Part shown: piece by piece, positions 25,462 through 48,699 of the stretch
Numbering within the stretch: the stretch's first letter is position 1
Layout: each line of letters begins with the position of its first letter
Origin: Pseudogymnoascus verrucosus
Lineage: Eukaryota
Length of the DNA stretch: 64,000 nucleotides
Strand: one strand, 5' to 3'
Assembly: GCA_001662655.1 (NCBI GenBank)
Contig: KV460216.1
The notes under the pieces: model-generated
Seen by the model: only the letters and a program-made list of their open reading frames with translations
What the model was told of the DNA's origin: nothing
Databases searched by the model: none
Made by a program: the position numbers and the translations under genes

Positions 25462-27858
25462 TCATTTCTCCTCGGGCCCCTTTCCCACTACCGCCAACTG
25501 ATACGTCGCCAGCTGCCCCTCGGTCATGACACTCGGACTCCCCACCATAACATCCTCTCCCCTATTATTCTTCGGAAACGCAATCACATCCCTAATGCTC
25601 TCCGTCCCTGTCATAACCGCCACCATCCGATCCAGCCCCAGCGCCATACCCGCATGCGGTGGACACCCGGCCCTGAGCGCCTCAAACAGGTGCTTGAAGT
25701 CCGCCAGCCGAGCCTCTGGCATACCCAGCACCTCGCGCATGATCCACTCCTGCATCTGCGCATTGTGGATACGGCGTGAGCCACCACCGAGCTCGACGCC
25801 GTTGAGGACGAGGTCGAAGTGGTCTGCGACTACGCGGAGGGGGTCGGAGTGGAGGAGGTCGACGTCGGCGGGGGTCTTGGGGGAGGTGAAGGGGTGGTGG
25901 GTTGATGAGAAGCCGGCGGTGCCGCCTTGGCCGGGATCGGTGGTGTTAGAGGGGGTGAAGAGGGGGAAGTCGACGATCCAGAGGAAGTTGAAGGATGGGT
26001 CGGGGTCGATTAGGTCGGCGGCAATGGCGGCTTTGTGGATGTGGCTGCGGAGCCGGCCGAGGGGTGTGGAGCCGCCGGATAGTTTGACGTCTCTGGGGCG
26101 CGCTTGGAGGATTATGAGATCGCCTTGTTCAAGCGGTTCGCGTGTAGTGGGTGGTGACCAAGTGTTGGTCTCTGTTGCGGGTGCTGGGTTCTCGGGGGAC
26201 ACCTCATTCGTAGCGGCCATAATTTTATCCACGATTGCTTGATCTTTAGAACTGGCCGGCTCTTCCACACCCGCCCCGTAAAATGCCCTTATACTTTCGA
26301 GCCCCTCGTGGCCGAATGCTGCGAGGCCTTCTAGTGGCTTCATAGGGTCGTAGATAAAGACGCCAGGTCCGCCATCAGGGTTGTCGTGGAATGGACGCAT
26401 TTCGGGCGAATCCATGATCGTCTTCACAAAGGCACCTACTTGCCTTGGGCTACAGTTCAAATTGATTTTGAAGATATCGACAATGGGGTCTTCTAGCGAG
26501 GTAATCATGCTCTTCAGGTTATCCGGAACTATGCTTTCAACTCTGTAGGTCTAGAATGGTCAGATAATGCAGTTTCACGGGATTGATAGACCTACCAAGT
26601 CTTTGATACGGAGGTCCGGTTTATCGACACCGTGGAACCTCATGGCATTGTCGTATGTCATACGCATAAAAGGGGCTGATGGCACATCTCTATCAGATCC
26701 TGCCCATAGCTTTTGCCTTAGTTTCCACATGTCTACAATAAAGCTTTCCATCCTCTTCATTACGCCGTCGGCATTTGTAAAGGCCATCTCCATGTCCAGC
26801 TTGAACCGCGTCAGTAAAGAGCACTCCTATCTGGGTATGGAATACTAACCTGGGTGAATTCGGGCTGCCGATCAGCCCTAAGATCTTCATCACGGAAGCA
26901 ACGAGCGACTTGGAAATATCTGTTGATACCACTCGCCATAAGTACCTGCTTATACTGCTGCGGGCTTTGCGGCAGCGCATAAGCATGTCCAGATGTGCGG
27001 CTTGGCACGAGAAACTCTCGCGCGCCTTCAGGTGTAGATTTGAACAGTATAGGCGTCTCAACCTCGTGGAAATCTGGGAGTGCTGTCCGTATACCCTTCA
27101 GTACCTCGCTCCTGAATATCAGACGTTTCTTGAGGGTCTCGTCGAATCGTATTTGCAGATGCCTCAGCTCTGGCCCGTATGTTGCATCTTCTCCCAGAAG
27201 AATATCTGCCGGAAAGTCGTTTAGTGACTGGACAGAGTTTATCAAGAGCTCATATTCTCGAGGCGGCTCTTGTTTCCCATCCTTTGTCGGCTTGACGTTC
27301 TTCCACTGGAGAGTACCGACGACTTCTACTGGAGTGTTCGCCCTGGCAGCCTTTAAGATTTTGTGTGCGTCGGGGCTGTTATCTCGCAGAGAGATGAGTT
27401 GGATAGTGGCAGCTCCGTCGGACAATGGAACGAAGGTCATCTTGCTGGAGACGTTCCGTACATTGCCAAGGGCGCCCTGCACTCGGACGGATTTCCCGAT
27501 GCTATTGTTGTCGGGGGATTTAACGATGGTAGCCAAGTTGCTCAAAGAGGGAGATTCATGGCGCTGGACTAGGTGAGAGGACAACATTAGCTGCGGATTT
27601 CACAAGTAGTAGGGACTGGGGCAATATACGGGTCTCTTTGAATTGCTTCATCCATGGTAACTCGTTCGCGCCAATTGTATTTGCTCCGCCAGCGGCATCA
27701 GCAGACAATGGGAAACCATCTGCGGCGCCGCCCGTAGGAAGCCCTGCTAAAGTTCTCCGTGTCAAACCAAAAGCAGCAATGGCCGATGAGCCACTATTAG
27801 GCAAGACATGGGATACAATCCTGGCGCCTACTCGAGGGCGGCAACATGCCCTCAACAT
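25462..27858 (-). CDS. MSD1: Mitochondrial aspartyl-tRNA synthetase; exons 27858-27630, 27568-26850, 26799-26596, 26550-25462
   Basis: Arg-rich presequence; [95 protein letters not shown]. Confidence 0.95.
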
Positions 27859-28131
27859 TGGTTGTGAGATTTGCAGGATATGGTTTCGGTATCATATACA
27901 AATAATCAAATATGGCATGCGTAAATACAGCGATAATGAATGTGAATAAATAAGTGAAAGTAGTAATACAGGCCGAGATGGGGATGGAGGTCGGCGAGGC
28001 TGCTGGAATAAAATACAGGCACTTACTCAGCCTTGCGTATTAGCCACATATCCAAGGCAACAATATTCTCGCTAACGACCTTTTGCGCTAAGATCAAATA
28101 AATACCGCCCGTAGTGTAGAATTTCGATCTT

Positions 28132-28406
28132 TATGACCTTCCAAGTTTTAAACAGTAAGTGATTGCTCGCTCCCCCAGCGATATACTTTCATCCAACACA
28201 GTGCAACCTTGCTAACTCATGTCTGTTACAGAATGATGAAAGCCTAGCGTGTTTTATATGATATGGCTCCCTCCTCGCCGAGCTTCCGAACTCTCTCTTC
28301 ACAGGGCTTCAGTGGTTTGGTTGCAAGGCGAGGTTGGGAGACGTGAAATCAGCGTTCGCCACACCCCCCTTGTTAACAAGCGGACGCGAATACGGCATCT
28401 CTGATC
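28132..28406 (+). ncRNA. snR45: snR45/U13-like box C/D snoRNA (18S rRNA acetylation guide) interrupted by a spliceosomal intron 28155-28231
   Basis: 5' ATGACCTTCCAAGTTTTAAA (as I recall the S. cerevisiae snR45 5' end; antisense to the 18S 3' terminus GGAAGGAUCAU); GTAAGT..GCTAAC..CAG intron; box C ATGATGA 28233; second 18S-antisense element CCTTGTTA 28368; ACAAG..GGACGC; box D CTGA 28401. Confidence 0.8.
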
Positions 28407-29344
28407 CTTCAAAGCCTTGGAAGGGCGCATTCTTTGATTTTTGTTGTTGGTTGGGGCTCGTGGAAGCGCCTGTGGAAGCGCCGTTGGTGGTTGGCTCCCA
28501 CACGGCCGGGGCGGTGCTGTGTCAGATGCAGACATGACCGGCAGTGTTGGGGATCATGGGAAAAACAGGGCGACAGGCACCATTTCAAGTGTTCTGATGT
28601 CTGAAGCCTTGATATCTCTAGAATTTTTTATTTTGACCTGTGTCTTTGATTTCTTCGTTTTTAGCCGTAAGTTAGATATCCCCCAGCGCGCCGGACTACT
28701 ACGGATTAATCGCAATATGACTTGTATTCTTCCGCTTTACAAACAATCTGTTCTAAATTACCTGGTGTGATAATGATTATAAATTAAACGTTGGAAGTAA
28801 TAAGATTAAACGCTCATATGTATGCTCCGGAGTGCGGTGCGGGAAAGGCGGCCGCCCACTTACGTTGGGCCACATGGATTTGATGTTTATGACGCTCATC
28901 CTCAAGTCCCCGGCTCAGCCCAAGCTTTGTTCAACGAACAAACAACAACTTCGCCTCGACTACCAACAACGACCTTCCAGGAGCGGCCACGAATACATAT
29001 AGGGCCATTCTGCGCTCGAATCCGCAAATCCGAAGTGAACTTTACCTTGCCTACAAATCCCCCGCACTCACGATGCCGGCTTCTTGGTAGATGAGATCGG
29101 GAGACCCCTACATTATTGACCAGGATTGACACGAGCTTAATCTTGCGATTAACAACACCACGTCCGTTTGCGCGCCCACGATCTACAGCATTCACGAGGC
29201 ACCAAAGGCTTCTTTAGCCGTTTCTACATCGGCTAGGATTTGCAGCGGCACTTTCTATGCGCACATTCTCGCCATTGACTGTTCGTCTCTTGCCGGAAAC
29301 CTTGGAGGCTTAGCCCATCGACGGTAGGCCCGTGGCATGAAACC

Positions 29345-31504
29345 ATGTCAAGTTCATTCGAGAAATCTGTGAAGGGCGCGACAAAGATAAAGGTGACTTG
29401 CCCTTTCTATCCGCTCAATGGCGCTCTGTCCTATCCAGTACTGACCGTGTCGCCCTCTCCCAGCTTGCCCCGCCGAAATCAAAATACATTGAGCATATCC
29501 TCATCGCAACACATTCCGGTGAACATGGCGTCGCAGAAGTCTTTCGCGCCCTTCAGAACCGGTTGCGCGACTCCACATGGACGGTGGTTTTCAAGGGTCT
29601 TATAACTGTACACCTGATGATTCGGGAAGGGTCACCCGATGTTACGTTGGAGTTTCTATCAAATCACAAGAACATGTTGGCTACAAGCAGCTTCACGGAC
29701 GGTATGTACAAAGCCTGGCAACCCAAGCGTATGTGCAAGCAGTGTGTCACCGCGAGTCGGATATGGTGTATCGTTCAGGAATGATTTCTTCGGGCACGTT
29801 ACTGATTGTTCTACAGTTCAAACGCATGGCAAGAATATCCGCCACTATTCGAGCTATCTGACTGAACGAGCGCGAGGATACCGACATAGCAAATGCGATT
29901 TTGTCCGAGGAGCGGAGAATCGATTTCAAAAGTTAACTGTCGACAAGGGCTTATTGCGGGAGACCGAACTCGTCCAACTCCAGATCAGTACGCTGCTGAA
30001 ATGTGACGTAAGTTGTCCATATGTGAAGAGAAAGGTGGATCTCTAACACTCTACAGGTGCTTGATAATGAGCCCGAGAACGAAATCACAATCACTGTATT
30101 CCGTATGCTGGTTCTTGACCTGCTGGCTCTTTACCATGTCATCAACCAGGCAATGATTGCCATCCTAGGTATGCTCGACTGGTTATATTTGTTGTATGGT
30201 GACGCTGATACAGTGTAGGTCAATTCTTTGAAATGACAAAAACAGATGCCCAGAGAGCTTTGGAGATATACAGAAGATTCACAAAGCACACGGACCTTGT
30301 AGTTGCATATCTTGGTACCGCACGGACATATGAGCACAAGACACGAGTTGAGGTACCAAAGCTTAAGCATGCGCCTGTGAACTTAGGGAAGCAGCTGGAG
30401 GACTACCTCGCCGACCCCGATTTTGATATCAACAGGCGTCAATATCTGGCGGAAGAAGAGGCAAAGAAGAAGAAGAACGGCACATTCAAACCATTTCTCA
30501 CTGCACAGAAGACAGGCGGTAGCTCTTCTCGTGTTGATGAAGCAAAGGCATTCCCAGATGCCAAACCAACCAAAGAGACGGCAGCCATCACGACAAAGGC
30601 ACAACCAGCTCCGCCTAAAGGTCCCGCGCCAGACTTGATAGATTTCTTCGCCTCCATCGAACAAAAACAGGAGCCCCTCGAAACTGCACCGCCACAACAG
30701 CAGGTAAATGCGCCCAACTTCACAGGCGCCCCGCAATTCCAAGGACAACAGCAGCAACCTATGCAGCAGCAAGCTATCCACCAACAACAGGTATTCCAAC
30801 AGAATGGATTCATGCAGCAACAAACAGGCTTCCAGGACCCGAACCAACAGCAACAACAGTTTAATAATGGATTCGCACAACCTCAACCGATGCAACAACC
30901 GCAGCAACTCCAACCTAACATGACTGGAGCTGGCTTCGGCGGGTACACCCCGCAACCACAAGCATACCCTTCAAACTCCCTCTCCCCAATCAATCAAAAT
31001 TCCCTCTCACCCTTCCCCGGACAACCACAACCACCCTTCCAAACCGGCCAACAGCAACAAGTCACAAACCCCTTCCGCGCAAGCATGATGATGAACCACG
31101 CCGCGAGCGCAAGCCCAACGACCATGGGCCAGAGTACCAGCCACACACTCTCCCCCGTATCGCCTCAAAACACAAACCCCTTCGCCAAACCAGCCTCCGC
31201 TCCTCCTGGCGGGCCACAAGCACAGCAATACCAACCAACTGGCCCCACTGCGAGCCCATTGCAGCCCGCGCCTACGGGGACTAACCCGTTTGCGCGACGA
31301 CCTGGGACGAGCGGTGCGGGAACACCGGGCGGACTGGCACCGCAACCTACAGGCACGAATCCATTTAGGCAGAGTGCATTTGTGAATACCGCGACGGGGA
31401 TGGGATGGCAGAATAATCAGGCGCCGATTGGTGGGGGACTAGACTCGATGCCGACTATTGAGGTGTTTCCGAGGCCGGCACAACAGCAGCCGTGGTCGCA
31501 GTAG
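29345..31504 (+). CDS. YAP1801: ANTH-domain clathrin adaptor (AP180/CALM, Yap1801/1802 family); exons 29345-29392, 29464-29702, 29817-30007, 30057-30168, 30219-31504
   Basis: MSSSFEKSVKGATKIKLAPPKSKYIEHIL, RLRDSTWTVVFKGLITVHLMIREG, PDLIDFF clathrin box, Gln-rich tail with four NPF motifs. Confidence 0.93.
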
Positions 31505-47715: not shown

Positions 47716-48699
47716 CTTCGAATCACGACCCAAGCATCGCGTCTGCCAAGTCGATGTCTCGTCTTTAGAAAGCTTGATCTGTCACCTGCATGCGTGTGTG
47801 TATCTGTTACCACCATGTCGGGTCTGTGCCTCTATATATATCGAACCAGTTTTGATGACATCACAACATTTCTCTATAGATTTTGAAAATCCCGCGTTTC
47901 CAGGGCAAGCCACGCGTAATGCTTACTTTCGCCCCTCGCACTATTCGCAAGCAGACTAGCCTCTCACCGTTCCATGGTGCCTCTAGAGGTGTGCCGCTGG
48001 TGTTCCGCTGGTGTTCCGTGGTATAACAAGATTTGGTTGTGCTTCAACCAGCGTCTATTGCCTGTTCCTAGTGTAATATATGGCCCAACATTCTAGTAAC
48101 TAGCACATACGACCATAGACTCAAGAGAATTGGGCATCCCGTCCGCTCTGCCATACACAAGCTTGAGATCGGTGGATTAGTAGTTGGGTGGGTGACCACC
48201 AGCGAATACCCACTGTTGTATGTTTTTTTGTCAATTCTTTTGCCGTTTTATTGCGTTAACATTTTGGCCCCTGAAGTTGAAGATCTTGGAGCGGAGGAGA
48301 GGAGAAGGGAGGGTGCGCTCGATGGGTGTTGTGTTTGTGTTTTTGGGCGGAGAAAGGGAGGGGATTGTTATTTCGTTTTTGGAATAATGCCATATTTGCG
48401 CCTATTCCCAGATAGATGGCTAACAATGATGTGCCGTGCCAAACTGTATCGAGTTCGAGCATATACACGCAATCAAATCTCTCCCACATGCACCTGAACA
48501 ACTACAAGATCACATCAAACCACAAGCACAAAACCCCAGCAGCCATCCCACAATAAAACTTCATATCAGTAGTCATTAAAGACGCCAGCCAGCCTCTCCC
48601 CAAGCAAGACCAGCAAACACCATCTATCCCAGACATTGACCATACCCTTCACCCCACTCCCTCCCTTCATTCACCCTCGCCACCTTGCACCCGACTCAC

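Follow-up and report, generated by a model that had tools for sequence, protein, structure and literature searches.

snR45 of Saccharomyces cerevisiae, a small nucleolar RNA (snoRNA) described as guiding Kre33 acetylation of 18S ribosomal RNA (rRNA) at C1773, carries boxes C and D, a 5'-terminal guide upstream of box C that is directed to the 18S 3' end, and a second guide of 8–9 nucleotides (nt) in an internal loop that pairs just ahead of helix 45. Most of the RNA consists of a long variable helix, and snR45 is described as having no usable methylation guide. According to PMC5464676, nt 1–15 of snR45 pair with 18S 1781–1798, and nt 120–127, in the loop, with 1760–1767. In the account of a fungal snoRNA survey, the snR45 family is given only for Saccharomycetaceae (PMC5824354). 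Here, we describe a locus at positions 28133–28424 of a 64-kb stretch of Pseudogymnoascus verrucosus (contig KV460216.1, assembly GCA_001662655.1; "the window" hereafter means this whole stretch), which is probably the counterpart of snR45 and U13 in filamentous ascomycetes: an unannotated, independently transcribed box C/D gene that is split by a spliceosomal intron. The structural features of snR45 listed above recur at this locus. Unlike snR45, the gene described here has the intron, which lies at box C, and Rfam models detect no similarity between the two. Its 5' guide spans 8–10 nt, as against the 15 nt given for snR45.

Vertebrate SNORD13 (U13) is described as an independently transcribed RNA polymerase II (Pol II) snoRNA with 5' and internal 18S antisense elements, which is the organization proposed here. 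SNORD13 is about half the size of the RNA at our locus. Unlike our gene, it is intronless, and the sequence likeness between the two is limited to the boxes and the antisense motifs. In human SNORD13, the 5' antisense elements are reported to pair with a stretch of approximately 15 nt beyond the mature 3' end, forming stems IV and V (PMC9670809). The 3'-extended precursor is reported to mask the 5' guide in this way, and stem IV to be needed for accumulation, which compensatory mutations rescued (PMC9670809, Thalalla Gamage et al.). A helix between the exon and the tail of the RNA described here has the same arrangement as these two stems.

Known members of the SNORD13 class are described as barely alignable, and the cross-eukaryote survey that reports this focused on animals and plants and left ancient versus repeated origin undecided (PMC9226516). 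The SNORD13-like RNAs of Diptera (Or-CD1) resemble our case in that they are described as divergent, missed by homology tools and recognized by their antisense elements and boxes (PMC9226516). They are described as having no 5' element and as being often hosted in introns, whereas the snoRNA described here contains an intron and keeps its 5' element. Yeast snR4, which guides acetylation of 18S C1280 in helix 34, is presented as sharing the overall fold and a bipartite logic similar to that of pseudouridylation guides (PMC5464676), and its family is reported in some Pezizomycotina (PMC5824354). The conserved single-stranded elements found here match the flanks of helix 45, to which the comparison was confined, and not the sites given for snR4, and Rfam gives no match to that family.

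Regular interruption of structured small RNAs by introns is described as known only for U3 and U6 (PMC5832005). Intron-containing fungal U3 provides the closest parallel: its intron, like the one proposed here, is located toward the 5' end of a box C/D RNA with transcription of its own, within or beside the region that pairs with rRNA. U3 introns are reported to share the GT..CTRAY..YAG layout, with similar intron lengths and similar distances from branch point to acceptor (PMC5832005; Neurospora crassa U3 introns, PMC2780460). U3 differs in family and function, and its introns are described as lying in the first stem-loop, whereas the intron here abuts box C. In the literature searched, whose journal coverage was incomplete, we found no prior description of an intron-containing relative of snR45 or U13. 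No such RNA appears in the main text and tables of the N. crassa and Aspergillus fumigatus snoRNA catalogues, and a limited term search of the PMC9226516 supplement returned no SNORD13 entry for Aspergillus or Neurospora. What is new here would thus be a helix-45 acetylation guide that has diverged from the known members of its class and has an intron conserved at box C, a reading of the sequence that we consider probable.

Conservation of the exon, intron and body

Related loci were collected from fungal metagenome contigs that were fetched by means of an exon of the neighboring ANTH-domain gene (window 29464–29697). Among 585 pattern matches, 91 encoded a relative, and the best 80 loci were kept. 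With window positions 28050–28700 as the query, blastn detected a homologue in 38 of the 80 loci, and an nhmmer profile of the body (28233–28424) recovered the same 38 loci and the window itself, with E values from 5e-54 to 3e-25. Relative to the ANTH match, 31 of the 38 loci had the element on the same strand and 763–1426 nt upstream (1040 nt in the window); in five it lay 4.4–6.9 kb upstream, and in the remaining two (L071 and L073) it was downstream and on the other strand. The 42 loci without a homologue comprised 26 that reach less than 1.1 kb upstream and 16 that reach at least 1.6 kb.

Alignment A1 contains the window and 27 loci, that is, 28 distinct full-length copies. Eleven loci were omitted: six near-duplicates of aligned loci, in which the same exon and intron were seen (L012, L029, L032, L033, L042 and L044), three that start inside the element (L031, L054 and L080), and L071 and L073, in which no exon was recognizable. 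The latter two (L071:2831–3229 and L073:2892–3405, both minus strand) carry GC-rich copies of the body that do not differ from one another starting 2 nt ahead of box C; their upstream sequence is unrelated, and their tail lacks the GGAAGG strand. They may be assembly chimeras or may represent a lineage with another arrangement.

The elements recognized in the window and in A1 are as follows.

28096–28104, plus strand: TATA-like AAATAAATA, 29–37 nt 5' of 28133; putative Pol II promoter element
28133–28154, plus strand: 5' exon of approximately 22 nt, ATGACCTTCCAAGTTTTAAACA, conserved in 28/28 copies; its 5' end is a predicted one
28133–28142, plus strand: exon element antisense to the 18S 3' end, AUGACCUUCC; CCUUCC in 28/28 copies
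28137–28149, plus strand: exon strand of the terminal helix, pairing with the tail
28155–28231, plus strand: spliceosomal intron of 77 nt, very probably genuine; GTAAGT at 28155–28160, GCTAAC at 28211–28216 (branch-like CTAAC at 28212–28216), CAG at 28229–28231
28233–28239, plus strand: box C AUGAUGA, 1 nt 3' of the splice acceptor; invariant columns in A1
28266–28340, plus strand: long variable helix, 28266–28279 with 28327–28340 (RNAalifold, intron-removed alignment)
28290–28316, plus strand: conserved hairpin region inside the long helix (RNAalifold, intron-removed alignment)
28352–28387, plus strand: hairpin with the internal antisense element; stem 100% paired in 28 sequences
28352–28358 with 28381–28387, plus strand: 7-base-pair (bp) stem of this hairpin, GCGUUCG with CGGACGC; one double change
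28368–28375, plus strand: loop antisense element CCUUGUUA (DNA CCTTGTTA); antisense run in 28/28 copies
28401–28404, plus strand: box D CUGA; invariant in A1
28405–28424, plus strand: 3' tail; conservation stops at 28424, and the tail may be trimmed in the mature RNA
28411–28414 and 28416–28424, plus strand: tail strand of the terminal helix, CUUGGAAGG, predicted to mask the 5' antisense element
28425–28647, plus strand: non-conserved 3' extension (precursor or read-through) seen in transcripts of relatives; no similarity beyond 28424 in the 38 loci

A pattern composed of box C, 120–150 nt, CCTTGTTA, 15–35 nt and CTGA occurred once in the 64-kb window and in none of 100 dinucleotide-preserving shuffles. 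Similarity between the loci began at box C (28233) and ended at 28424; a second short block, corresponding to 28137–28160 (exon and 5' splice site), lay at a variable distance upstream. Across the 28 copies, mean pairwise identity was 0.22 in the 60 nt upstream, 0.73 in the exon, 0.37 in the intron, 0.70 in the body, 0.62 in the tail and 0.22 in the 60 nt downstream. A conserved exon and body around a diverged intron interior is the pattern that a real spliceosomal intron shows.

The splice signals were equally regular. The exon was followed by GT in all 28 copies (GTAAGT in 10, GTGAGT in nine, and five other GTNNGY forms in the remaining nine), and the acceptor was CAG in 24 and TAG in four. 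Intron length ranged from 51 to 118 nt. CTRAY was present 11–16 nt before the acceptor in 26 of the 28, and the other two had CTAAA or CTGAA at 12 nt. The gap between the AG and box C was 0 nt in 26 copies and 1 nt in two, so a canonical intron sits within the mature-RNA region at a position fixed at box C in every copy. These signals match those reported for fungal U3 introns (PMC5832005).

Pairing of the exon with the tail

Structure was predicted with RNAalifold on the alignment after removal of the intron residues, and pairs were then counted on the genomic alignment A1. The consensus consisted of a terminal helix between exon and tail, the long variable helix, the conserved central hairpin and the 7-bp stem closing the CCUUGUUA(C) loop. 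In the terminal helix, where exon 28137–28145 faces tail 28416–28424, 97.6% of cells were paired, and three of the nine pairs showed compensatory changes (A-U to C-G or G-C; G-C to A-U). For a 29-pair structure including this helix, none of 500 shuffles attained the observed covariation score, and sliding the partner by 1–3 columns reduced pairing to 29–50%. The full 51-pair structure had 91.9% of cells paired and 15 pairs with double changes, again with 0/500 shuffles reaching its score. Double changes were counted in nine of 12 pairs of helices 4 and 5, and pairing reached 97.6–100% in helices 6 and 7. U-G pairs fixed in 28/28 and 25/28 sequences are compatible with the plus strand only.

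The exon-tail duplex had a mean energy of −18.1 kcal/mol, compared with −5.6 kcal/mol for shuffled tails (the tail of locus L006 was cut short in this extraction). In many orthologues, the helix extends to 13–15 bp and ends 3–4 nt from boxes C and D. It adjoins the boxes only after splicing. Because a terminal stem next to boxes C and D exists only without the intron, intron removal appears to be structurally required, and because the geometry of this stem needs the intron gone, exon and tail should belong to one RNA. The exon-tail helix would mask the 5' guide in a 3'-extended precursor. Its SNORD13-like arrangement and the 3'-extended transcripts of relatives suggest that the tail may belong to the precursor and be trimmed later. 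The mature RNA would measure approximately 200 nt if the tail is trimmed and approximately 215 nt if it is kept. Taken as a whole, the locus is very probably a real, spliced and conserved box C/D RNA.

An earlier sequence-only reading of positions 28132–28406 had proposed such a gene from the window alone. The elements it listed (the 5' arm, GTAAGT, GCTAAC, CAG, ATGATGA, CCTTGTTA, CTGA and the TATA-like stretch) are all present in the window. Its proposal that a 77-nt intron splits the snoRNA is supported by GT..YAG ends and an intron position conserved in 28/28 copies, by the diverged interior and by covariation of the exon with the segment 3' of box D. Its view that splicing joins an 18S-antisense arm to box C agrees with a covarying terminal helix that meets the boxes only in the spliced form. 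The likeness to snR45 and U13 that it saw also held: boxes C and D are present, with two elements antisense to the two 18S sites described for snR45. It had advised a survey of the intron across Pezizomycotina, and the intron is present in all 28 distinct full-length copies from the window and the fungal metagenome loci. The size it gave, about 195 nt, fits our range of approximately 200–215 nt. The 3' boundary needed revision: the conserved unit continues approximately 20 nt beyond 28406, to 28424, and transcripts of relatives run to at least 28610–28647.

Complementarity to 18S rRNA

The comparison used short 18S motifs, of which the one for the internal site is the 3' end of the ITS5 primer site. 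The helix-45 sequence is shown to end in GCGGAAGGA in human and Schizosaccharomyces pombe entries of the PMC9226516 supplement, which partly confirms the downstream motif. Against that downstream motif, the exon element formed a perfect 8-nt antisense run, AUCCUUCC, in 23 of the 28 copies. In the other five, the run was the 6-nt CCUUCC, preceded in four of them, including the window, by AUGA, which can contribute four more pairs across one bulged rRNA base. The loop element, CCUUGUUAC, lies in a loop of 20–24 nt, and its antisense run was 9 nt in 15 copies, 8 nt in eight and 7 nt in five; its C-to-U changes preserve G-U pairs.

The internal element is complementary to the 18S segment just before helix 45, and the exon element to the segment 3' of helix 45. 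The order of the elements along the RNA, both pairing sites and the placement of the internal element approximately 25 nt before box D are as in snR45 and SNORD13. Guiding helix-45 acetylation is, with good probability, the function of this RNA, judging from sequence and from analogy with these systems.

The antisense core of the exon was invariant, with 0 deviating cells, compared with three in the tail (L006, whose alignment is shifted, was left out), and the covarying positions of the helix fall outside this core. The invariant core faintly hints at a constraint beyond helix formation. L006 itself (L006:7070–7349) has the exon element AUCCCUUCC and a G-rich tail (GAGGAGGGG). The 18S of N. 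crassa and Podospora anserina (Sordariomycete) is shown ending in GGAGGGA in the PMC9226516 supplement, and the exon of L006 may represent guide-target covariation with an 18S end of this kind.

Two further features of the window were not shared by its relatives. In the window, CUGAUCCUU, directly 3' of box D, could also pair with the 3' end of 18S; it is unconserved in orthologues, and we treated it as a coincidence. A perfect 12-nt palindrome, CTTGTTAACAAG, at 28364–28379 overlaps the internal antisense element and is absent from the orthologues in A1.

Transcripts in relatives

Assembled contigs from four runs of four studies, labelled as RNA by guess, were 90–99% identical to the window. 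Because they skip introns of the flanking genes at GT..AG or CT..AC joints, we regard them as RNA-derived and as coming from close relatives. Two of the four runs yielded a separate contig over the element: one of 395 nt in X2 (28232–28610) and one of 436 nt in X5 (28236–28647). The X2 contig begins exactly at the first base past the proposed 3' splice site. Both contigs proceed 3' as diverged sequence and are joined to neither neighboring messenger RNA (mRNA). Relative to the window, both have one extra nucleotide after 28410 and lack 3 nt near 28516, and the X5 contig is also missing one base at 28618. No reading frame survives these indels, which indicates that the RNA is non-coding. Relatives thus transcribe the element, and one boundary of the transcript falls at the proposed 3' splice site. 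A TATA-like element 29–37 nt upstream and, in these relatives, a contig separate from both neighboring mRNAs would be compatible with independent Pol II transcription.

No contig from the four runs covered 28108–28231, and none contained intron sequence. An intron-retaining RNA should have yielded contigs running through the intron. With 22 nt, the exon falls short of the 31-letter words used in these assemblies, and coverage at the 5' end, where it is located, is poor; the pattern is therefore consistent with splicing and is no proof of it.

Evaluation of alternative explanations

Several observations weigh against the interpretation of the locus as a spliced helix-45 acetylation guide. At E values up to 10, no Rfam snoRNA family matched 27950–28650 (U13 and snR45 included, if they are in release 15), and none matched eight orthologous loci. 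The junction 28154^28232, which the sequence-only reading had predicted for RNA data, was present in no assembled contig of the relatives in the four runs. Sixteen loci reach at least 1.6 kb beyond the ANTH gene on its upstream side and lack the RNA at the expected place; in L001, one of these, the ANTH gene has approximately 72% DNA identity and the upstream region has no similarity. L071 and L073 have the body and no recognizable exon or tail helix. The 5' complementarity of the window is not continuous (6 bp, one bulged rRNA base, 4 bp), and because the terminal helix sequesters the 5' element, opening or trimming would have to release this element before it could guide. Finally, the 18S comparison used short, partly confirmed motifs rather than this organism's own 18S.

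The Rfam matches that did appear were of other kinds. Two chance-level matches fell on the opposite strand of 27950–28650, a single microRNA-like chance match was found in the eight loci, and at the gathering threshold the only match over the window was a 5S rRNA gene. The sequence-only reading had warned that a genomic covariance search could miss the gene because of its intron. The search did miss it, with only the unspliced form being scored; divergence contributes to this, since the unspliced body, approximately 88% of the RNA, was unmatched too. Other identities were also considered. U3 was rejected, as there was no Rfam match to the U3 model, and snR4 was unsupported, with no model match. 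Protein coding was rejected because small open reading frames over 28299–28537 are broken in relatives by the 1-nt insertion at 28410. The A. fumigatus orphan Afu-511 (164 nt) was dismissed as an orthologue because it is reported to match the H/ACA snoRNA snR32 (PMC5824354).

Among the alternatives, the one with most in its favor, though unlikely, is a box C/D snoRNA whose exon and tail serve only as an "external stem" of the precursor, bringing the boxes together before being trimmed, with the internal element acting alone. The mature RNA would then begin a few nt before box C, as is reported for the Diptera SNORD13-like RNAs, which have no 5' antisense element and are nevertheless linked to acetylation (PMC9226516). 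The exon-tail helix does covary like a purely structural element, and the RNA contigs start at 28232 and 28236 without exon letters. The absence of the exon is, however, expected for 22 nt at a poorly covered 5' end and 31-letter words. A structural helix could drift, whereas CCUUCC is kept in 28/28 exons and is preceded by AU in 23/28, and the covarying positions lie outside the antisense core, where the exon has 0 deviating cells against three in the tail (without L006). The 5' element is also reported to be essential in yeast (PMC9226516, citing Sharma 2017). Slightly less likely still is that a spliced box C/D snoRNA pairs with the 18S 3' region for chaperoning of folding, 3'-end cleavage or the timing of helix-45 maturation rather than for acetylation. 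Complementarity alone does not reveal the enzyme recruited, U3 and U14 are described as box C/D RNAs that act in processing and not in modification (PMC5464676), and the lack of an Rfam match to U13 or snR45 leans the same way. Yet both paired segments coincide with those described for snR45, one on each side of the CCG target; as in snR45 and SNORD13, the internal element is placed in a loop approximately 25 nt before box D; and the masking helix involving the 3' extension is common to SNORD13.

The remaining two explanations are much less probable. If there were no splicing, the upstream conserved block would be a promoter or leader element and the RNA would begin at or near box C. This agrees with the unobserved junction and with contig starts at 28232 and 28236, but we consider it very improbable: a promoter element would not covary with an RNA-strand segment 270 nt downstream, GT and YAG are kept in 28/28 copies and the branch motif in 26/28 while the interior diverges, and an RNA of this class would have no terminal stem if its 5' end lay 1 nt before box C. 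That the motifs combine by chance, or that the exon is a short protein-coding one, is hardly credible. The exon does begin with ATG, but the frame from this ATG across the proposed junction, read by hand, stops after 12 codons, relatives differ by 1-nt indels, the motif pattern appears in 0/100 shuffles, and homologues occur in 38 loci with E values down to 5e-54.

Proposed mode of action and significance

For the snR45/U13 counterpart proposed here, we infer splicing itself, the RNA ends, a cap, the small nucleolar ribonucleoprotein (snoRNP) proteins and the acetylation function. Pol II would start approximately 30 nt after the TATA-like element, producing a primary transcript composed of the ~22-nt exon, the intron ending at box C, the body and the 3' extension. 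The spliceosome would then remove the intron and join the exon to box C, as the splice signals, the covariation and the contig boundaries suggest. In the spliced RNA, pairing of the exon with the segment that directly follows box D would form a terminal helix of 9–15 bp beside the box C/D kink-turn. By analogy with the known systems, this helix would be expected to aid snoRNP assembly and to mask the 5' guide until 3' trimming or opening of the helix unmasks it. The exon element (AUCCUUCC in most copies, AUGACCUUCC in the window) and the loop element (CCUUGUUAC) could then clamp 18S on either side of helix 45. Given the complementarity and the yeast and human systems, such clamping would make the CCG cytidine accessible to Kre33/NAT10 for acetylation.

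A broader and more tentative possibility is that the helix-45 guide is ancestral to fungi and animals, that filamentous ascomycetes hold its 5' guide on a mini-exon, and that splicing at box C acts as an obligatory licensing step that gates 18S acetylation. Only the spliced RNA would then form the terminal helix by the kink-turn, assemble the snoRNP and later unmask its guide. A guide-masking helix in common with human SNORD13 would argue for common descent over convergence.

If the proposal is correct, spliceosomal introns regularly interrupt a further family of small structured RNAs. Genes of this kind can escape genome scans, as a functional element lies on a 22-nt exon. A conserved counterpart in filamentous fungi would fill a gap in the distribution of these guides, and the common 18S pairing sites and masking helix would support an early origin. 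The locus would also offer a handle on helix-45 acetylation of 18S in filamentous fungi.

Genomic surroundings

The element is intergenic, between a mitochondrial-type aspartyl-tRNA synthetase gene on the minus strand and the ANTH-domain gene on the plus strand, which are arranged divergently. The largest exon of the minus-strand neighbor translates to a class II aspartyl-tRNA synthetase-like sequence (named by eye), and the N-terminus of the plus-strand neighbor reads as ANTH/AP180-like in translation. The introns of these flanking genes, at window 26599–27964 (minus) and 28912 to beyond 30500 (plus), are confirmed by the RNA contigs of relatives, with joints at 26799^26850, 27568^27630, 29390^29462, 30007^30057 and 30165^30216. 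Two further joints, 26551^26599 and 29699^29816, contain replaced letters, which probably reflect divergence and not non-canonical splicing.

Upstream of the exon, A/T-rich TATA-like stretches were seen by eye at a similar distance in many orthologues. A motif CGG(C/T)TAGCG, often after TGAAGC, recurs approximately 70–90 nt 5' of the exon in many orthologues (e.g. L013, L019, L018 and L027; by eye), where it precedes the TATA-like stretch. The window has GCGCTAAG at 28086–28093 in its place. This motif may be a shared promoter element of the snoRNA gene.

The base count of the window includes 42 N, none of them within 27600–29000. The 5S rRNA gene matched by Rfam is a dispersed copy at 48105–48224 on the plus strand (74.2 bits, E 7.7e-14), which fits a genome organization of the filamentous ascomycete type.

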